A stretch of 37,785 bases of DNA from Acidimicrobiia bacterium (GCA_041621915.1 JBFJZV010000001.1:1-37785); one strand, 5' to 3'. Shown: positions 4,806-31,937, counted from the stretch's first letter. Program-made: numbers and translations. Notes: a model not told the origin generated them from the sequence alone.

Positions 4806-6746
4806 ATGACGTCGGAGCCGGACGGCACGGTCGAACGGCGGGCGGGGGCGCCGGTGGCACAGCGCGGCGCGGCGCGCCTGTTCCTGGGCGGTGCGGTGCT
4901 CACCATCGGGGTGCTCTCTCTGGCCACCGTCGTGAATGCCACTGCGCGTGACGCCAGCGCCGCCACTGCGGCGGCCGTCGCCGCCGCCCGTCAGAACATC
5001 GTCGGCTACGACGTCATCGCCGCAGCTCGAGCCGTGGCCGGCGACGACCCGGTGGCCCGGCGTCGCGGGCTCGAAGCACTCGAGGAGTCCAGGCACGAGC
5101 TGTCCGCAGGGCCTCCCGCGGCGCTGAGCCAGGTGGCGGAGGGCTCGGGCCGGGCCGCCGGCGTCGCCGTCGCCTTCGATGCCCTGGCCGCCGCCGCCGG
5201 CGACATGGTGGGCGCGGCAGAGGCCGGCGCCCCCCTCGCAGCGCACCTCGCCGAGCTGGAGCGCCGCGCCGAGCTGTACCGGCTGGGCATCGATGCGCTG
5301 CTCTATGACGTCGGCATGGCCGCCGAGGCCGAGCTGGAGGCCGAGCGGCGGGTCCGGGTGGTCCTGCTCGCCGCCGCCGCGCTGCTGGCGGTGGCGCTCG
5401 CAGCCCTCGCGCTGCGTATCCGCCGCAACATGGAGCGGGATGGCTCGACCCTCGCCGCCGTGGCCGGCCACAACGGGAGGTCGCAGCTCGCTCATCGCCT
5501 CGGCAACACGATCGTGCGGGCGCAACGGTCGGGGGAGATGGCCGCGCTGCTGTTCGCCGACATCGACCTCTTCAAGGCCATCAACGACCGCCACGGGCCC
5601 GAGGTCGGCGACGCCCTCCTCCGGCAGGTGGAGACCCGCATGCGCGCCACCGTCCGTGACAGCGACACGGTGGCACACATGGGCGGCGACGAGTTCGCGG
5701 TCGTGATCGAAGGGGTGCATCGTCCGGAGGACGCCGGGAGGGTCGCCGAGAAGCTCCTCGACGACCTGGCCCGGGCGTTCGAGGTGGGCGGCCACCGGCT
5801 GCGGATCACCGCCAGCGTGGGGATCGTCCTCTACCCGCTCGACGGCCTCGACGTCGACGAGCTGCTTCGCACCGCCGACATCGCGATGTACGCCGCCAAG
5901 GAATCGGGCCGCAACGGCTACCAGTTCTCCACGCACGAACTGCGGGCGCGCACGTCGGAGCGGCTGTCGCTGATCGAGGGCTTGCGCCGGGCGCTGGAGC
6001 GTCCCGAGGAACTCGAGCTGGTGTACCAGCCGAAGATCAACATGGCCTCCGGCGAGCTGGTCGGCGTCGAGGCCCTGCTCCGCTGGCACCACCCCGAGCT
6101 GGGCACGGTGCTGCCCGACCGGTTCATCTCGGTGGCCGAGGAGTCCGATCTCATCGTCCCGCTCGGGCGCTGGGTCATCGAAGAGGCATGCACCCAGGCC
6201 GAGCAATGGCGGCGGGCCGGTCAGGACCGGTTGAAGGTGTCGGTGAACGTGTCGTCGCGCCAGTTCCGCCACGGCGACCTCGTGGAGACGATCACCGCCG
6301 CGCTCGCCGGTGCTGGCCTCGACCCGCACTGGCTGGAAGTGGAGTTGACCGAGGGCACGTTGGCCGAGGACACCGCCACGGTGCGCCGCACCCTGGAGCG
6401 CCTCAAGGCGATGGGGGTGCAGGTGGCCATCGACGACTTCGGCACCGGGTACTCGTCGCTGAGCTACCTGAAGCGGTTCCCGATCGACTCGCTGAAGATC
6501 GACCGCTCGTTCATCCGTGACGTCACCGAGGACCCCGACGACGCCGCCATCTCCCAGGCCATCGTCAGCCTCGCCCGCAGCCTCAGGTTGCAGGTGGTGG
6601 CCGAAGGCGTCGAGACGCCGGAGCAACTCGAGTTCGTCCGCGGCCTGGGCTGCGACACCGTGCAGGGCTTCCTCATCAGCGAGCCGCTGCCAGTCGACGG
6701 CGTGGATGCCTTCGTGGTGCGCCTCGACCAGCGCGCCGTGGTGTGA
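4806..6746 (+). CDS. Membrane-anchored GGDEF/EAL protein (diguanylate cyclase / c-di-GMP phosphodiesterase)
   Basis: The ATG at 4806 is preceded by ggacgaggacgagg. There is an N-terminal TM helix (LFLGGAVLTIGVLSLATVV) and a second TM helix (VVLLAAAALLAVALAALAL). GGDEF lies at 5682-5696 and the EAL motif (VEALLRW) at 6069-6077. The downstream DDFGTGYSSL and QGF motifs are typical of an active EAL domain. Confidence 0.9.
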   Translation: MTSEPDGTVERRAGAPVAQRGAARLFLGGAVLTIGVLSLATVVNATARDASAATAAAVAAARQNIVGYDVIAAARAVAGDDPVARRRGLEALEESRHELSAGPPAALSQVAEGSGRAAGVAVAFDALAAAAGDMVGAAEAGAPLAAHLAELERRAELYRLGIDALLYDVGMAAEAELEAERRVRVVLLAAAALLAVALAALALRIRRNMERDGSTLAAVAGHNGRSQLAHRLGNTIVRAQRSGEMAALLFADIDLFKAINDRHGPEVGDALLRQVETRMRATVRDSDTVAHMGGDEFAVVIEGVHRPEDAGRVAEKLLDDLARAFEVGGHRLRITASVGIVLYPLDGLDVDELLRTADIAMYAAKESGRNGYQFSTHELRARTSERLSLIEGLRRALERPEELELVYQPKINMASGELVGVEALLRWHHPELGTVLPDRFISVAEESDLIVPLGRWVIEEACTQAEQWRRAGQDRLKVSVNVSSRQFRHGDLVETITAALAGAGLDPHWLEVELTEGTLAEDTATVRRTLERLKAMGVQVAIDDFGTGYSSLSYLKRFPIDSLKIDRSFIRDVTEDPDDAAISQAIVSLARSLRLQVVAEGVETPEQLEFVRGLGCDTVQGFLISEPLPVDGVDAFVVRLDQRAVV

Positions 6747-10333: not shown

Positions 10334-11011
10334 CTACGTCCCGGCGGCCGCCTTCAGGCGGTCGCGGTCGACCACGGTGATCACCCGGTAGCCGGTCTCC
10401 ACGGCGCCCGTCTCCCGCAGCTCGCCCAGTGCCTCGTTGACCGACTGGCGGCTGGCTCCGAGCAGCGTCGCCAGGCTCGCCTGGGACAGGTGCACCTCCC
10501 CGTAGCGGTCGGCCTCGTCCAGCAGCAGCTCGGCCACCTGCTCCCGGACGGTCCGGTGCATGAGCCGCAGCATGCGCCGCTGGGTCGCCTCGAGCTGCGA
10601 CAGGCCGGCGACCAGCCACCGGAGCGTGATCACCGGGTGCTCGACCAGCAGCGGCAGCAGCCGGTTGCGGGTGAATCGGAGCGCAGTGACCGTGTCGACG
10701 GCGCGGGCCGAGGAAATGTAGGGCTCGCCGCGGAACATGGCGATGTCCCCGAGCACCGCCCCCTCGCCGACCCGGGCCACCACCCGCAATCCCGCTTTCG
10801 GGCCCCTGTAGAGCTCGGCGGTGCCGCGCTGGACGACGTAAGCGGCTTCGGCCGGCTGGCCCTCCCGGAAGAGGTGGGTCCCGGGGTACTTCTCCACGAA
10901 CTCGCCGGCATCCGACAGTGCCCGCAGGTCGTCGGGGCTCAGCGGCAGGTAGTCGGTGCGGCCGAAGGTGCGTGCCAGCCACGCGAAGTGCTGCTGGTCG
11001 GCGACGTTCAT
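10334..11011 (-). CDS. Crp/Fnr-family transcriptional regulator (cNMP-binding domain + C-terminal HTH)
   Basis: The ATG at 11011 has a GAGGAA RBS. The cNMP-binding-like beta-roll is LFREGQPAEAAYVVQRGTAELYRG...GDIAMFRGEPYISSARA. The C-terminal HTH is SQASLATLLGASRQSVNEALGELRETG. The first 72 codons of the track ORF are unsupported. Confidence 0.85.
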   Translation of the reverse strand: MNVADQQHFAWLARTFGRTDYLPLSPDDLRALSDAGEFVEKYPGTHLFREGQPAEAAYVVQRGTAELYRGPKAGLRVVARVGEGAVLGDIAMFRGEPYISSARAVDTVTALRFTRNRLLPLLVEHPVITLRWLVAGLSQLEATQRRMLRLMHRTVREQVAELLLDEADRYGEVHLSQASLATLLGASRQSVNEALGELRETGAVETGYRVITVVDRDRLKAAAGT

Positions 11012-11193
11012 CGTGTTCCTCGTAGGTTCGGTTGGTCGGCAGTCGCTACACAGCCAGCAGTCGTGGGAGCCGCTGACCTCCACCTTTGTCGCCCACCCGA
11101 CACTACTGCGCTGAAGCAACTGTCGCCCCTCTGACAATGGGATGTCTCGCCGGCGCCGCTTCCTGGTTGCTCTCGGTGAGGAGGTAACAATTA

Positions 11194-11673
11194 ATGGAGC
11201 TCTTGCACGCACTGCTCGCGGCGGCACTCGGCACGGCGCTGATGAGCCGTTCGAGTTTCACCGAGATGTTCTGGGAGGGCCGTGAGGCCAGCACGGTGCC
11301 CGGCCAGGCGCTCGGGCAGCTCCTCAAGCCCTTTGGCGTCCAGAAGATCGAGGGCCGCATGCTCTCGATCCTCTCCGACTACATGCACTGGGTCCTCGGC
11401 GTGTCGTGGGGCGTGGCGTTCTGGCTGCTTCACCCGGTGCTCGGGCTCGACCTGTGGCTGGCCGGCATCGCGTACTTCATCGTCGTGTGGGGCGCCGAGC
11501 AGATCTACCTGCCGCTGCTCGGCCTCGGGATCCCCTGGCCGTGGAAGTGGGGCGCCAACCCCGACGGGCGGTACATCTGGCGGTACAACCTGTCCGACAT
11601 GTGGCACCACGTCGTCTACGCCGGCGGCACCACGCTCGGCTGGCTGCTGATCGACTTCACCCAGCGGGGATGA
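11194..11673 (+). CDS. Small integral membrane protein (about 4 TM helices), function unknown
   Basis: The ATG at 11194 has a strong RBS (gaggagg, about 8 nt upstream). Hydrophobic helices are LLHALLAAALGTALM, WVLGVSWGVAFWLL, LWLAGIAYFIVVWGA and VVYAGGTTLGWLLI. Third positions are GC-rich. It lies 63 nt upstream of, and on the same strand as, the TIR-NB-ARC-WD40 gene. Confidence 0.75.
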   Translation: MELLHALLAAALGTALMSRSSFTEMFWEGREASTVPGQALGQLLKPFGVQKIEGRMLSILSDYMHWVLGVSWGVAFWLLHPVLGLDLWLAGIAYFIVVWGAEQIYLPLLGLGIPWPWKWGANPDGRYIWRYNLSDMWHHVVYAGGTTLGWLLIDFTQRG

Positions 11674-11736
11674 GGCCCCCGCTGCTTTCAGCGGCGGCTC
11701 CGTGTACGGTTGGGGGAAGTCACGGGGGAGCGACGA

Positions 11737-14700
11737 GTGACGAATCGCGGGCACGTGTTCATCTCCTACGCACGCGCCGACGACGCCGAATTCGTAGACC
11801 GGTTGCGAACCGACCTCCAAGCGGGCGGCCTGCACGTTTGGTGGGACGAGTCCGCCATGGAGAGTCGCGGGGCGGGTTTCCTGCAGGAGCTCCAAGATGC
11901 CATCCGCAGCGCCGACCGCGTGGTGCTGGTTACTGGCCCGGCGGCCGGCCGCTCCGACTACGTGGAAGCGGAATGGCGGTTCGCGCTCGACGAGGCCTGC
12001 ACCGCAGTCACCCCGGTGTTCCGGTCGGGCGGGGTAGACGAGGCCCCACCCGGTGTGCAGCACCTGCACGGGGTGGACTTCGGCGACGACGGGCGCTATC
12101 GAGAGGCGCTCTACGAGCTGATCCGACTCCTGCGTAGCCAGCCGGCGGCGCAGGGACCGTTGTGGGGCGTCGACGCCCTCCCTCCGTATCACGTGCGCCG
12201 GCCTGACGTCGAGCGTGACCTGGCCGCCGCCGTGATGCCAGATCTCGGCGGCCCCGTCGCCGTGCCCGGGGAGCAGAGCGTGACCAGCCTCGTCGGCATG
12301 CCCGGCTCCGGGAAGTCCGTTGTCGCCGCTGCGTTCGCCCGCCTCTGTGCCACCCGTTGGGCATTCGGCGACGGCATCGTGTGGGCGCGGGTGGGGGAGT
12401 CGGCTTCGGCGCCGGCCGTGCTGCAGCGCGTCGCTCAGCGGCTTCAGGTCCCAGCCGCCGCCCTCTCCGAGCACCTGTCCGATCGAAGATGCCTGATCGT
12501 CCTGGACGACGTGTGGGACCAGAAGGTCGTGGAGCATGTGGCCGACGCCCTGGGACCTGTCTGCCGAGTGCTGCTGACGACCCGCCGCGGCGACCTGGCG
12601 ATCGCGGCCCGCAGCCTCCACCTGGACGTGATGGCCGGCGGGCTCGCCTTGCAGTTGCTGACCAGAGCCGCCGGCCGCGTCGACGCCGCCGAGCTACCGG
12701 GATCCGCCGAAACGATCATCGACGAATGCGGCGGGCTGCCGCTGGCGCTCGCGATGGTCGGTGCAGCTCTGGCGGGCAAGCCGGAGGACCGCTGGGCCAC
12801 GATGCTCGACCGGCTGCGCGGCGCCCGCCTCGGCGACATCCGCCACAGGCTGCCCCGCTACGACCACCCGACCCTGCTGGCCGCAATGGAGGCTGCTACG
12901 GCTGCGCTCGACTCCGATCCGGACGTGCCGGACCATGCTCGCGCCCGCTACGAGGACCTTGCCGCGTTCGAGCGTGACGGAGAGATACCCGAGCCGGCGC
13001 TGGCTGTCGTGTGGGCGGCCACCGGTCTCGACCCGGGCGGCACGCAGGACCTCTGCGACCTCCTCGTGAGCAGGTCGCTACTCCGCCGGAGCGTTTCCGG
13101 GCGGTACACGCTCCACAACCTGCAGGCCGACTACCTCCAGGGCACGCATCCCGACCTCAGCGGCCTGCACGGCCGGGTCGTGGCGGCGTATCGGGAATGC
13201 TGCGACGGTGATTGGGCAGCCGGTCCCAACGATGGTCATTACTTCCAGCAGCTCCCGGTGCACATGCGCGACGCCGGCCTCACAACGGAGCTGGCGGAGC
13301 TGCTGGGCGACCCGGATTGGATCGTCGCCAAGTTGGCGGCCACCGACCCGTGGACGCTGGCCGCCGACGAGGTGCTGGTCCCCGGAAACGCCGACGAGCA
13401 GCGGCTGCTGTACGAGGCGCTGCGGCGATCGGTGCCTGCCCTGGCGGCGGAAGCCCGTCAGCTCGCCCCCCAGCTCCTGGGCCGGCTCGGAGGCGTCGAC
13501 GTACCGGCGCTCGCCGTCGTCCTCGGCCGCATGAGGGAACAGGTCGACGGCACCTGGCTGGAACCGGTATGGGCAACCCTCGACCAACCGGGTGGCCCGC
13601 TGCGATGGACGCTCGAGGGGCACGTGGGCGCCGCCCATGGCGTGGCCGCAACCCCCGACGGCCGGCATGCCGTGGTTGGCACCACCGAGGGCCACGTGGT
13701 GCTCTGGGACCTGGCCACCGGGCGCCGCCGGATCGCCTTTCACAGACCCGACGCGCACGTCTGGGGCGTGGCGGTCACCGACGACGCCCGGCGGGTGGCG
13801 GCCGCGCTCGACGTCGACGGCGTCGCGGTCTGGGACGTGGCATCCGCCCAGGAACTGCCGACCGCATGGGAGCCCGGCGTGGCCGTGCGCGGCGTGGCCT
13901 TCGTCGACGGTGGAGCGCGGCTGGCGATCGGAACCGGCGAAGGTGAGGTGGCGGTGCTCGCGCTTGATGGGAGCCCGCTCGACCCGCTCGCCGGCCGCCA
14001 CGTCGAAGGCGTGCAGTCGCTGGTGGCGGCGCCGGGAGGGCGGATCGTGGTGACCGGCGACCAGGGCGGCGCGGTCGCGGCCTGGGACGTGCAAGCTCGC
14101 CGCCAACTGTGGTGCATGCCGGCCCACGACTCGGGCGTCTGGTCCGTCGCGTGTGATCGCGACGGCGCCCGCTGCCTGTCCGTGGCCAATCACAACACGG
14201 TTGTGCTTAGCGCATTGGAAACGGGGGAGACGCTCGCTTCCTTCGCCACGGGCGTATGGTCATTCGGGTGCTGCCTGCTCGACGACGGCCGGGCCGTGAC
14301 CAGCGACGCAGACGGAGAGCTGAAGATCTGGAAGCTGCCCGAGGGCGAGCGGATCGGCGGGCTGCGCGCCCACGACGCGATGGCCGATCGGGTGGCGGCG
14401 GCGGGTGGGGCGCGGGTGGTCTCGGTGGCGCGAGACGGCACCGCCCGGGTCTGGGACCTCGACGCACCCACGGGCACCGAGGTTTCCGCGCACGGGGGAC
14501 CCGTGTACGGCGTGGCCGTCTCGGCGGAACTGCAGGGAGTGATGGCGGCGTCGGAGGACCGGATGGCCACAGCGTGGGGTTTCGACTCCGGCGCGCGCCT
14601 ACTGAATATCGAGCTGAAACGCTGGGGCCGCCGGGTGGCGTTCGTGCCCGGCACGACGCTGATCCTCGTCGGCGACGCAGACGGGATCGTCCACCTCGTG

Positions 14701-15486
14701 AATCTGCGCGGGCCCGAGATGCTCCGCTCGCGTCAGCTGCACGTGCCGGCGGTCGACTCGACGCCCGAGGGCGGGACCGGCTTCGGCCTGGGCGGGGTGA
14801 CAGGCCTGGGTGTCTCGCCTCCGGTTGCGTGGTCATTCGGCGCCGACGGCGACCTCGCCCTCTGGCACCTGGAGCGGGACGAGATCGACCGCTCGTCGAC
14901 GGAGCTGGAGCCCCCCGTCGTCGGGGCGGTGGCCACCCGCTCCGATCGGGCCGTCGTCGGCGCCGGCGACGGCCTCCTGCGAGCGGGCCCGCTGTCGGGC
15001 GGTCTCGAGGCCAGGAGCCCCCCGGAGCCGGCCGCGGCCTGCGTGGCCGTGGCCATCGACGCAGTGGGGGCGATCGCCGTGTCGTCGCACGTTGACGGCG
15101 CCGTCATCGCCTGGCGCCTCGACGATCGCAAGGCCGGGTACCTCGAGCTCGGCGGCACCGCCGACGCCACGATCATGCACCTCGAAAGCGGCATGAAACT
15201 CCCGATCGGAGGTTCGTTGCAGGCGCCCGTCATGGCCCGCGGCTTGGCCGTCTCGGCCGATGGGCGGCTCGCCGTCGGCGCGTTCAGCGACGGCTGGGTC
15301 CGGGTGTGGGAGCTGGCTCGACTCGCCCAGGTGGCTGCCTTCCGCTGCGACGAGGCCTTGTTCTCGTGTGCGATCGACGGGAAGATGATCGCGGCCGGCG
15401 GGGCCCGCCGGGTGCACCTCCTTGAGCTGCACGAGGAAACCGGTCAGGACGCGGAGCGCCCCGCCTCGTCCTTGGCCATGAGGTAG
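11737..15486 (+). CDS. TIR - NB-ARC (AP-ATPase/STAND NTPase) - WD40-repeat protein, Apaf-1/NLR-like architecture
   Basis: The GTG at 11737 sits 6 nt after gggggag; the alternative TTG at 11710 is the track start. TIR domain: [11 protein letters not shown] (from 11752), LHVWWDE, VVLVTG, and SDYVEAEW with the catalytic-position Glu codon at 11971-11973. NB-ARC: Walker A GMPGSGKS at 12295-12318, Walker [10 protein letters not shown] at 12493-12519, LLTTR at 12571-12585, GGLPLAL at 12730-12750. Winged-helix segment [12 protein letters not shown] at 13102-13137 resembles the Apaf-1 YYLHDLQVDFL sensor-His region. About 14 WD-like blades span about 13597-15483 (VLWDL, AVWDV, AAWDV, KIWKL, RVWDL, LALWHL, VIAWRL, VRVWEL). 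It is a single uninterrupted ORF. Confidence 0.9.
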
Positions 15487-15950
15487 CCGCGGGCCCGCTC
15501 CGTCCGGGGGTAGCGGTCGACCAGCGCCCAGAAGCGGGGCCCGTGGCCGGGGACCACGAGGTGGGCCAGCTCGTGGACGATGACGTAGTCGAGCACCCAG
15601 CCCGGGCACTCGGCCAGGCGGCTCGACACCCGGATGCGGCCCGACTCGACGCTGCACGACCCCCACCGCGATTGCTGGCGGTCGGACCAGGCGATCTCGG
15701 CCGGCTCCGGGAGGCCGTGACGTCGGGCCAGCCCGGTGGCCCGGGCAAGGAGGTCGATGCCGGCCGCCGAGCGCTTCCGCATGACCCTCTGCCGCATCTC
15801 CCGCACCCACCGCTCCTCCTCGGCCGTCGAGAGGTGGGCGGGGAGGTGCACCCGCAGCACGCCGTCGACCAGCCTGGCCTGGACGGTCTTGCGGCGTCTG
15901 GTGCTGCGAATCACTTCGACGGGCACGGCGGTGTCGCTCATGTCGGGCAT
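15444..15950 (-). CDS. DUF45 / YgjP-like (M48-related, SprT-like) zinc metallopeptidase
   Basis: The ATG at 15950 gives [37 protein letters not shown]; the alternative ATG is at 15941. The HExxH motif is [17 protein letters not shown]. Layout is typical of DUF45. Its 3' end overlaps the convergent TIR-NB-ARC-WD40 gene by 43 nt. Confidence 0.85.
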
Positions 15951-15982
15951 CCTGCCATGCCCCTGTGACGAGAACTGGCAGT

Positions 15983-17215
15983 TCAGCCCCGGCCGCCCGC
16001 CAGCGACGCCGCCAGCGGCGAGCGGCGCAGCCGCACCATCGCAGCGACCCCGAGGGCCGGGCCGATCGCCAGCACCGGGAACGCCCACTGCCAGCTCCAC
16101 GCGTCGGCGAGCACCGGCACCCCCCGGATCGTGACCAGCGTCAGCAGGAACCCAAGCGCGGTCTGCAAGGTGAGCGCAGTGCCGCGGGTGGCGTCGTCGG
16201 CGGTCTCGGTGACCATCGTCGAGAACTGCGCCGAGTCGGCGACCACGGTGAAACCCCAGATCAGGAACAGCGGCATCACCACCAGCGGCGACCGGCCGAA
16301 GACGACCGGGCTAGCCAGCGCGCACGCGCCCGACACCACCATCGCCCCGCCGGCCACCGTCGTGCGGCCGAGCCGGTCCGCTCCCACGCCGGCCAGCCAG
16401 GCGCCCGCCCCGCCGATGGCGATCACCGCGAAAGTCGCCGCCGGCACCCAGCCGTCCCCGCCGCCCGCCGCCAGCGCGGAGGCCGACAGGAACGCCGCGG
16501 TCCAGGTCCACATGGCGTACAGCTCCCACATGTGGCCGAAGTAGCCGTAGGTCGCCAGCCGCACCCCCCGGTTGCGGACCACGCTGCCGACGTGCCGTAA
16601 CGAGAATGCCTGGGTGGCCGTCTCGTACGGGCCGTCGGGCACGCGTGCCATTGCCGCTGCCCCGGTGACGGCGAGCAGCGATGCCGCCGCCACCACTCCC
16701 TGCCAGTCAAAGCCGACGCCGCGGATGAGGTGTGGGCCAGCCGAGCCCACCGTCAACGCGCCGACCAGCACCCCGAGTGCCATGCCCCGGCGTTCCCGGT
16801 ACCACCCGGCCATCACCTTCAGCCCGGCCGGGTAGACGCCGGCCAGTGCGGCCCCGGTGGCGAGTCGCAGGCCGAAAGCCTGCCCGTAGTCGCCAGCGTC
16901 CAGGAGGAGCAATGCGCCGTTGGCTGCCGCGCCTGCCAGGGCGGTGACCAGGAACAGCCGGCGGCTGGGCACCGCGTCGGGAATGCCGGCCATCGCCAGC
17001 CCCAGTGCGCCTGCCACGAAGCCGATCTGGACGGCCAGCGTGAGCCCAGCGGTCTGCCCGCCCGACAGCTCCCACAGATCCTCGAGCTGTGGCGCCACTG
17101 CCGATGCCGAGAACCACAGAGTGAGGACCAGCAGCTGGCTGCCTGCGATGGTCGCCAGCGCCCGCCGCTGCTGCGACGGGTCGAAGCCGAGCGGCCTGGC
17201 TTCAGTCCCCCCCAC
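15983..17215 (-). CDS. MFS transporter
   Basis: The 410-aa ORF starts at GTG 17215. It has about 12 hydrophobic segments and Gly/Ala-rich helices typical of MFS. It overlaps the ccdA stop by 14 nt and ends 32 nt upstream of the DUF45 gene on the same strand. Confidence 0.85.
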
Positions 17216-31148: not shown

Positions 31149-31937
31149 ATGGCGAAGCTCACCGCCGCCGAGCGGGCCCGGCTCCCCGACCGCGCCTTCG
31201 CCTACGTGGACTCGAAGGGCAGCCGGCGCCTGCCGATCCACGACGCCTCGCACGTCCGCAACGCCCTTGCCCGGTTCAACCAGGTCCGGTTCGAGGACGA
31301 CGCCGCCAGGGAACGGGCCCGGCTCCGGGTGCTGCGCGCCGCCAAGAAGCACGGCATCGTCCCGGTCGGCTTCATCGCCGGCCAGCTCGAGGCGGAGCGA
31401 AGCTATGTCCCCGCAGGCCTCCCCACGGGGCTGGTCACGCTGCTCCTCACCGACATCGAGGGCTCGACCGGCATCCTGTCCCGCCTGGGCGACCGGTACG
31501 CCACCGTGCTGCGGGACGTCCGCGACCTGCTGCGGCGAGCGGTGCGGGGCGCAGGCGGGCGGCAGGTGGACGTGCGCGCCGACGAGTACTTCGCGGCGTT
31601 CGAGGAACCCGCAGACGCCATCCGGGCGGCGGTGGCGGCGAGCCGGGCGCTCGCAGCGCGGCATTGGCCGGACGGCGAGACCGTGATGGTGCGGGCCGGG
31701 ATCCACAGCGGACGGCCCACCCTCACCGCCTCGGGCTACATCGGGCTCTCGGTGCACACCGCCGCCCGGGTCTGCGCCGCCGCCCGCGGCGGCCAGATCC
31801 TCGTCTCGTCGGGCACACGCGACGCGCTGGAGCGGCTGCCGGACGGCATCGAGCTGCGGCGCCTGGGGCCGTTCGAGCTGAAGGGGCTCGCCGAGCCCGA
31901 GGTGCTCTACGAGGTCGCTCCGGCCGGCGAGCCCTGA
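31149..31937 (+). CDS. Class III adenylate/guanylate cyclase with N-terminal DUF6582-like domain
   Basis: The N-terminus is MAKLTAAERARLPDRAFAYVDSKGSRRLPIHDASHVRNALARFNQVRF. The cyclase core is VTLLLTDIEGSTGI...DEYFAAFE...VRAGIHSGRP...GYIGLSVHTAARVCAAARGGQILVS...ELKGL. Confidence 0.85.
   Translation: MAKLTAAERARLPDRAFAYVDSKGSRRLPIHDASHVRNALARFNQVRFEDDAARERARLRVLRAAKKHGIVPVGFIAGQLEAERSYVPAGLPTGLVTLLLTDIEGSTGILSRLGDRYATVLRDVRDLLRRAVRGAGGRQVDVRADEYFAAFEEPADAIRAAVAASRALAARHWPDGETVMVRAGIHSGRPTLTASGYIGLSVHTAARVCAAARGGQILVSSGTRDALERLPDGIELRRLGPFELKGLAEPEVLYEVAPAGEP

Follow-up and report, generated by a model that had tools for sequence, protein, structure and literature searches.

We analyzed a 37.8-kb stretch of DNA from an Acidimicrobiia bacterium (GCA_041621915.1, JBFJZV010000001.1:1-37785; ∼72% G+C), hereafter the window, which contains a gene encoding a TIR domain, an Apaf-1-like NB-ARC module and a tandem WD40-type β-propeller in a single polypeptide (Table 1). 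An earlier sequence-only reading of this DNA had described an uninterrupted open reading frame (ORF) of ∼1250 codons. Translation of the window indeed gives a single stop-free frame on the plus strand, from 11710 or 11737 to 15486, with 1249 codons and no internal stop. GTG 11737 is the likely start codon judging from the local sequence, because GGGGGAG lies 6 nt upstream, the alternative TTG 11710 has no ribosome-binding site (RBS) upstream, and independent gene callers give the same 1249-aa product in related NCBI assemblies, all metagenome-assembled genomes (MAGs). Neither a consensus promoter nor a terminator was identified for the gene.

All nine motif coordinates of the sequence-only reading translate exactly as it gave them. 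They comprise HVFISY (11752) and SDYVEAEW with Glu79 (11971-11973) in the TIR domain, followed by GMPGSGKS (12295-12318, with Lys193 at 12313-12315), LIVLDDVWD (12493-12519), LLTTR (12571-12585), GGLPLAL (12730-12750) and a segment of 12 residues (13102-13137, letters not shown) in the switch region; the 14 Walker A and Walker B letters and LLTTR are thus at their claimed places. The TIR, Apaf-1-type NB-ARC and tandem propeller modules that it predicted were likewise all recovered by Pfam, AlphaFold2 (AF2) and Foldseek.

We first consider the N-terminal domain, which matches Pfam TIR_2 (PF13676) over aa 7-127 (77.1 bits against a cut-off of 28, E = 2e-21) and is modeled by AF2 as alternating strands and helices over aa 6-133, with a predicted local distance difference test (pLDDT) of ∼75-98. 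A profile built from 21 TIR sequences of the family and compared with solved structures matched BtTIR, TIR-STING, AbTIR, the SARM1 TIR and PdTIR (E from 1e-11 to 4e-9). Glu79 stands opposite the Glu of AbTIR 'NYELDG' and the Glu of SARM1 'HKEIV', which is E642 by the numbering of the alignment. In SARM1, E642 is catalytic and the E642A mutant is inactive. Three alignments keep Glu79 in 25/30, at least 90% of 80, and 21/21 sequences, which bears out the earlier assignment of this residue to the catalytic position. The PADLOC models matched by the TIR part were SAVED-TIR, TIR-pAgo and ThsB, and the PADLOC family models for Avs and bNACHT gave no match to the protein.

The central part of the protein carries a nucleotide-binding domain (NBD), helical domain 1 (HD1), the winged-helix domain (WHD) and helical domain 2 (HD2). 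Pfam recognizes NB-ARC over aa 179-366 (87.8 bits against a cut-off of 23.5, E = 9e-25), an APAF-1-like WHD over aa 402-467 (27.2 bits against a cut-off of 27) and APAF1_C over aa 474-544 (29.3 bits against a cut-off of 22.8). In a sequence search of solved structures, the best match was Apaf-1 (aa 178-542 against Apaf-1 145-523, E = 2e-28), and plant helper NOD-like receptors (NLRs) and AfsR scored far below it. The 12-residue segment, which had been likened to the sensor-His segment of Apaf-1, does align with it, opposite Apaf-1 '(R/C)YYLHDLQVDFL'. It includes an LHN motif, the equivalent of Apaf-1 LHD and plant MHD, whose His460 aligns with the His of Apaf-1 LHD. Lys193 and Asp257 show no variation across 70-80 homologues, His460 is invariant (80/80), Arg283 is kept in 68/70 and Pro335 in 68/70 and 80/80. 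Walker A position 189 (12301-12303) is Pro here, Thr in the two nearest relatives and Gly in 61/70.

We modeled the protein with AF2 as two overlapping halves, aa 1-620 and aa 541-1249. The first half, built on 80 homologues, has a pLDDT of 93 and a predicted TM-score (pTM) of 0.90. Its top Foldseek matches are closed ADP-bound Apaf-1 structures (3sfz, 3shf, 1z6t), with a query TM-score (TMq) of 0.60 and a root-mean-square deviation (rmsd) of 4.1 Å, and the active apoptosome fits poorly (rmsd ∼22 Å). After Apaf-1 come RPP1, NRC, CED-4, Roq1 and Dark; EfAvs5 is remote, at rank 50.

The second half (pLDDT 88.6, pTM 0.88) contains 55 strands that form 14 blades; in Pfam, WD40 and many β-propeller models match from aa 622 on. 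A 15-residue linker separates blades 7 and 8 in this predicted 7+7 arrangement, and the second propeller has two inserted loops, at aa 1001-1020 and aa 1136-1166, the latter of low confidence over aa 1141-1161. By E-value, the best Foldseek match of this half is the Nostoc double propeller 2ymu; by TM-score, it is the HD2-WD1-WD2 region of Apaf-1 (5juy/3j2t, TMq 0.67-0.68). The sequence-only reading had proposed two 7-bladed propellers as in Apaf-1. The count of 14 blades stands in the AF2 model, but Apaf-1 itself has 15 repeats arranged as 7+8, with cytochrome c clamped between the propellers (PMC4691890). At the DNA level, the blade region shows no tandem repeats, which marks its blades as old and diverged. 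Two of them share no more than a weak similarity over 45 nt. These results also rule out a recent repeat amplification or a hypervariable WD40 array of the kind found in fungal NLRs and Nostoc 2ymu.

We further investigated how the gene came to lie at this locus. The locus was found in ten NCBI MAGs, with nine full-length copies and one cut by a contig end, all of which we refer to as lineage A. In lineage B, whose flanks have ∼85-90% DNA identity, a DUF3179 paralogue occupies the slot between the gene for a 159-aa membrane protein (unk159) and a YgjP-like gene. The same paralogue sits in the slot in lineage C (flanks 75-83% identical), and in lineage D the slot is missing and DsbD adjoins Crp directly. 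The 159-aa gene is 91% identical between A and B, 87.7% between B and C and 85% between A and C. This indicates that A and B are sisters, that the DUF3179 state is ancestral and that the TIR gene was gained by replacement in lineage A. When the sister locus of lineage B (L095) was compared with the window by blastn, homology stopped at 11677, 4 nt beyond the stop codon of the upstream gene, and resumed at 15465; L091 gave the same pattern.

The downstream breakpoint falls inside the coding sequence. The last 22 nt of the ORF (15465-15486, ∼7 codons) run into DNA homologous to that of the host, where they are antisense to the YgjP-like gene, while the last ∼7 codons of the YgjP-like gene (15444-15464) lie in inserted DNA, and its product has 165 aa here vs 161-162 aa in the sister lineages. 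The two convergent genes overlap by 43 nt (15444-15486). Given the breakpoint at 15465, this overlap and the 17-residue C-terminal tail are products of the insertion junction. The nearest relatives have no such tail and end 2 aa past the last blade, and pLDDT is below 50 over aa 1242-1249.

Base composition was examined as G+C content at third codon positions (GC3), which is 0.866 for the TIR-NLR gene; in 24 other genes, windows of 140 codons gave 0.931 ± 0.029. An excess of A/T-ending codons had earlier been noted in the TIR-coding part as a hint of foreign origin. The excess is real and its direction right, but it is gene-wide and not confined to the TIR part (GC3 0.829 vs 0.871 for the rest of the gene, Fisher p = 0.19). 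The two nearest relatives are on contigs of lower GC, where the gene has a GC3 of 0.76-0.77. Together with the low gene-wide GC3, this favors the view that the gene was acquired horizontally in its entirety. The TIR-NLR gene is a lineage-specific accessory gene, recently gained by lineage A, probably through horizontal transfer.

Table 1. The TIR-NB-ARC-WD40 gene, its domains and its immediate surroundings (positions in the window)
Feature	Position	Strand	Evidence
Complete ORF, 1249 aa + stop: TIR - NB-ARC/WHD/HD2 - 14-blade tandem β-propeller	11737..15486	+	ORF, Pfam, AF2
TIR domain, aa 6-133	11752..12135	+	Pfam TIR_2, AF2, family profile
Glu79, catalytic-position glutamate of the TIR domain	11971..11973	+	Profile alignment to SARM1 E642 and AbTIR
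NB-ARC NBD+HD1, aa 179-366	12271..12834	+	Pfam NB-ARC, alignment to Apaf-1
Within NB-ARC: Walker A; Walker B; sensor-1 Arg283; GxP	12295-12318; 12493-12510; 12583-12585; inside 12730-12750	+	
Winged-helix domain, aa 402-467, LHN motif with His460 at 13114-13116	12940..13137	+	Pfam APAF-1-like_WHD
HD2 / APAF1_C helical domain, aa 474 to ∼602	13156..13542	+	Pfam APAF1_C, AF2 helices to aa ∼602, Apaf-1 alignment
First β-propeller, blades 1-7, aa 622-907, WD-like ends in most blades	13600..14457	+	AF2, blade sequences, Pfam
Second β-propeller, blades 8-14, aa 923-1232, degenerate repeats	14503..15432	+	AF2, blade sequences, Foldseek
C-terminal tail, 17 residues + stop	15433..15486	+	Breakpoint, nearest relatives, pLDDT
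Shine-Dalgarno-like GGGGGAG, ends 6 nt before GTG 11737	11724..11730	+	Read from sequence
Lineage-A segment, 3787 bp, carries the TIR-NB-ARC-WD40 gene only; replaces a ∼1.0-kb DUF3179-paralogue segment	11678..15464	+	blastn vs sister locus L095
unk159, 159-aa predicted membrane protein, resident, same strand, directly upstream, context only	11194..11673	+	Conserved in sister lineages
YgjP/SprT-like metallopeptidase gene, resident, convergent, context only	15444..15941	-	Pfam YgjP-like, E = 7e-25

Several observations concern the surroundings of the gene in their own right. The neighbors are housekeeping genes, encoding WS/DGAT, PolX, GGDEF-EAL, DUF3179, acyltransferase, Crp-like regulator, MFS, DsbD, redoxin, Bpa, WhiB, thiolase and Ser/Thr kinase proteins. 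Of these, WhiB and Bpa are indicative of Actinomycetota, and the thiolase has its closest named relatives in Acidimicrobiia/Acidimicrobiales MAGs (∼80% identity). The interval between Crp and DsbD (∼11012-17201; loci L091, L095 and L103) is short and differs in gene content between related Acidimicrobiia MAGs: it is empty in lineage D, holds patatin, unk159, DUF3179 and YgjP genes in C, unk159, DUF3179 and YgjP in B, and unk159, TIR-NLR, YgjP and MFS in A, where the MFS gene (∼15992-17198) is likewise specific to the lineage. The DUF3179 paralogue of the slot is called in two pieces, at L095:6477-7502 (128+194 aa) and L091:8544-9602 (120+225 aa), which could reflect a frameshift conserved between them, a pseudogene or a pair of real genes. 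A short hairpin (CCGCTG-cttt-CAGCGG, 11680-11695) lies where the inserted segment starts, right behind the unk159 stop; it has no T-run after it and no call in the terminator scan.

We next consider how widely such proteins occur. The identical protein is present in public sequence data. The nearest relatives, 50-52% identical, are on two metagenome contigs, followed by dozens of full-length TIR_2 + NB-ARC + APAF1_C + WD40 proteins at 27-38% identity. Some variants in the family differ at the C-terminus (TPR or other), and some have a trypsin-like N-terminus. A scan guided by a profile, with each species represented by one genome, returned 389 relatives. Those bearing a TIR domain come from Alpha- and Deltaproteobacteria, Planctomycetota, Acidobacteriota, Myxococcota, Verrucomicrobiota, Chloroflexota, Actinomycetes and one Methanospirillaceae archaeon, and those with other N-termini from Nostocales and Methanothrix/Methanocrinis. 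No relative closer than 35% identity was found among GTDB species representatives, and a single-protein search of genome contigs returned none. By sequence similarity, the protein is placed in a small divergent subclade with relatives known from metagenomes only. The patchy spread of the family over many phyla and some archaea is typical of defense genes.

Within this distribution, full-length relatives are carried by methanogenic archaea (L002, L023, L056 and L062, from Methanocrinis, Methanothrix and Methanospirillaceae), of which L023 at least matches from the TIR domain on. In 16 cyanobacterial Apaf-1-like loci (L009, L015, L016, L018, L019, L020 and ten others), a common ORF segment of ∼200 aa lies directly 5' of the NB-ARC match and probably represents an N-terminal effector domain, other than TIR, that these proteins have in common. 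Family loci on viral contigs number three among 2.9 million IMG/VR contigs. L099:5001-8372 and L100:5001-6890, both from IMG/VR, encode TIR-NB-ARC-WD40 relatives at ∼30% identity, and could either be carried by prophages or lie on host DNA wrongly classed as viral.

We then asked whether the gene has partners. No homologue of any neighbor in the window was found at 81 family loci, and in all-against-all clustering of flanking ORFs, no neighbor was common to over 4 of the 41 TIR-type loci. The gene stands alone as a unit, and the earlier description of the protein as self-contained gains support from the lack of a conserved partner at these 41 loci. Two candidate partners were considered and rejected. 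The first, unk159 as a SLATT-like pore, is ruled out: the protein has no SLATT match and only a DUF1440 match at E = 0.085, with no family model reaching its cut-off, and its gene occurs in sister lineages devoid of the TIR gene but not at the 81 homologue loci. The second, the Crp-like regulator, is a resident gene not linked to the family elsewhere. The window contains several genes for cyclic-nucleotide signaling, all of which appear to be resident. The Crp-like regulator, of the cNMP-binding type (10334-11011, minus strand), is divergent from the unk159/TIR-NLR pair, and a GGDEF-EAL protein (4806-6746) and a DUF6582-adenylate/guanylate cyclase fusion (31149-31937) are encoded on the plus strand.

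These data bear on what the TIR domain produces. TIR domains with the same catalytic Glu make cyclic ADP-ribose (cADPR) isomers in Thoeris (ThsB) and in plants, and the TIR part matches ThsB and Thoeris type III models, if weakly. The protein might accordingly generate a cADPR-type or related messenger for an effector encoded elsewhere in the genome. We consider this unlikely, since no neighbor is conserved among the 41 TIR-type loci, the inserted segment holds one gene only, and no SLATT, SAVED, SLOG or macro-domain gene lies near the gene in the window. NAD+ depletion would instead be the likeliest output, as there is no conserved partner gene to read a nucleotide signal.

Rather than an antiviral system, the protein could also be a switch for regulated cell death, dormancy or stress that responds to an endogenous cue, in the way Apaf-1 senses cytochrome c. 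Its context of housekeeping and redox genes would suit such a role, as would the Crp-like regulator, which is divergent from the unk159/TIR pair and may control transcription of the TIR gene; Kaur et al. link CRP-like factors to some AP-ATPase systems, and NLR-like proteins are enriched in multicellular bacteria. However, the Crp, unk159 and redox genes are resident in sister lineages without the TIR gene and do not accompany the family elsewhere. Moreover, an accessory conflict gene accounts better than a core physiological switch for the recent gain in a single lineage and the patchy spread across phyla. We therefore give this explanation a similarly low probability.

Altogether, we propose that the gene probably encodes a STAND (NLR-like) receptor of the Apaf-1 type whose effector is a TIR NADase, horizontally acquired and acting alone as a conflict (anti-phage or anti-mobile-element) or regulated-death switch whose output would be NAD+ depletion. 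The NADase activity, oligomerization, immune role and trigger are proposed by homology to Apaf-1, plant TIR-type NLR (TNL) resistosomes, Avs/bNACHT and bacterial TIR NADases. At rest, NB-ARC would hold ADP via Lys193, Arg283 and His460, and the propellers would fold back onto the NBD, as they do in closed Apaf-1. Capture of a protein ligand by the tandem propellers would be followed by nucleotide exchange and a rearrangement of NBD-HD1 against the WHD, so that the nucleotide-binding oligomerization modules (NODs) could assemble into a ring or another oligomer. The N-terminal TIR domains, forced together, may then form composite active sites centered on Glu79, where NAD+ would be cleaved, and the resulting depletion would lead to growth arrest or cell death, a form of abortive infection. 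In a 2026 survey of STAND proteins, an immune-related effector domain is one criterion for a defense-associated clade (PMC13581612).

Several points weigh against this proposal. The PADLOC scan returned TIR-domain matches only, and no full-length system model fits the protein. The neighbors gave no meaningful match to PADLOC defense models in the window, as expected from the earlier remark that there is no obvious defense island here, although the gene does occupy a variable slot. The flanks show none of the mobile-element hallmarks searched for, namely an integrase, a tRNA or terminal direct or inverted repeats. For three TIR-like (TeTIR) domains of prokaryotic NACHT proteins, no NADase activity was seen in vitro, so that a conserved Glu is no guarantee of activity in isolation. 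Lineage-A copies are at least 99.95% identical (at most 2 single-nucleotide polymorphisms over 3750 nt); they therefore count as one lineage, and dN/dS carries no information on purifying selection. The Asp found in 61/70 homologues at the third position of the LHN motif (13111-13119, aa 459-461) is replaced by Asn461, an Asn common to the two nearest relatives. Finally, no experimental study of any bacterial TIR_2-NB-ARC-WD40 protein was found in the searchable literature, outside which most subscription journals fall.

Some of these features would also be expected if the TIR domain were a non-enzymatic interaction scaffold, or if the gene were a recent acquisition that is not expressed or functional in its host. 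The MHD-type Asp-to-Asn change and the Walker A Gly189-to-Pro change, the GC3 not adapted to the host, the C-terminal tail that is a junction artefact and the lack of a consensus promoter or terminator all point that way. Yet the ORF runs for 1249 codons without a stop and keeps every catalytic and switch residue, it has a good RBS, and the AF2 models are confident. As LHN is common to relatives only 50% identical, it is a clade feature and not a sign of decay. A scaffold or decaying gene is thus very unlikely.

Beyond the TIR NADase receptor that we favor, a more ambitious reading can be formulated. The protein might be a natural minimal prokaryotic hybrid of apoptosome and resistosome, in which the two propellers, acting as a clamp, would seize a specific protein as Apaf-1 does with cytochrome c, either one from a phage or one signaling host damage or redox state, and ring assembly would directly switch on the TIR NADase. 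We regard this as quite unlikely. If true, it would offer a living model of the ancestral state behind the animal apoptosome and plant TNL resistosomes and, were the trigger endogenous, a case of bacterial programmed death in the strict sense.

The architecture itself is not new, as the sequence-only reading had already remarked: TIR/AP-ATPase fusions and bacterial Apaf-1 orthologues with propellers are both already described in the literature (PMC7159879, PMC13581612). According to the former source, which cites Leipe 2004, TIR/AP-ATPase fusions have long been known in actinobacteria, cyanobacteria and deltaproteobacteria. Bacterial NB-ARC/NACHT proteins with WD or TPR repeats have been repeatedly reported from Actinobacteria and Cyanobacteria, in surveys cited in 10.1101/2020.01.06.895854, and further bioinformatic descriptions of AP-ATPase/WD40 proteins are those of Koonin & Aravind 2002 and Urbach & Ausubel 2017, as cited in these sources. 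The 2026 STAND survey highlights bacterial Apaf-1 orthologues with β-propeller sensors, and its accessible part reports no experiment on them (PMC13581612). Within the same literature scope as above, no report was found on the trigger, oligomeric state or reaction product of bacterial TIR/Apaf-1-like/WD40 proteins.

The closest comparison is with Apaf-1 itself. NBD, HD1, WHD and HD2 are homologous end to end, the LH(D/N)LQxD(F/Y)L sensor-His segment is common to both, the AF2 model superposes on the closed ADP-bound form, and in both proteins two C-terminal propellers follow HD2. In contrast, the N-terminal effector is a TIR domain here and a CARD in Apaf-1, and caspases are therefore not expected to be recruited. 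The blades number 14 here vs 15 (7+8), the second propeller is degenerate with inserted loops, and the motif is LHN here vs LHD. Bacterial Apaf-1 orthologues and AP-ATPase-WD40 proteins belong to the same architecture class and sequence family (homologues 27-52% identical); the host here is a member of the Acidimicrobiia, whereas published emphasis has been on cyanobacteria and caspase-like N-termini.

Plant TNLs such as RPP1 and ROQ1 share the order TIR - NB-ARC - repeat sensor in one chain, and Foldseek recovers both RPP1 and Roq1. The expected logic is also the same, with ligand-induced oligomerization creating TIR NADase sites. They differ in carrying leucine-rich repeats (LRR) and C-JID instead of a pair of WD40 propellers and in their EDS1-type downstream pathway, which has no counterpart here, and the NOD is closer to Apaf-1 (E = 2e-28) than to plant NLRs (E from 1e-5 to 1e-13). 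Avs and bNACHT proteins likewise combine effector, STAND NTPase and repeat sensor in a single gene and are accessory genes of patchy distribution, but they form another STAND clade, with sensors that are mostly TPR-like vs WD40 here (PMC13581612). TEP1/NWD-type TeTIR(DUF4062)-NACHT-WD40 proteins and Swarozyc also resemble the protein in their TIR-like NADase head, STAND ATPase, Apaf-1-like helical domain and WD40 repeats. These proteins hydrolyze NAD+ in a Glu-dependent manner and thereby deplete it. Their extended TIR-like DUF4062 and NACHT domains contrast with the canonical TIR_2 and NB-ARC found here.

Set against these systems, what is newly seen here is single-gene autonomy across 41 loci, lineage-specific replacement, sharp breakpoints at 11678/15464 and a gene-wide drop in GC3. 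In the literature searched, the family otherwise appears in comparative genomics only, and its members are thought to be related by evolution to the animal apoptosome and to plant TNL immune receptors. As the host is uncultured, the gene is a less convenient experimental entry than its homologues in cultivable cyanobacteria, Streptosporangium or Rubrimonas. While the finding leaves existing knowledge of the protein class unchanged, a single-gene cassette with breakpoints resolved to the base pair and no partner supports the view of such proteins as autonomous, horizontally mobile conflict modules.

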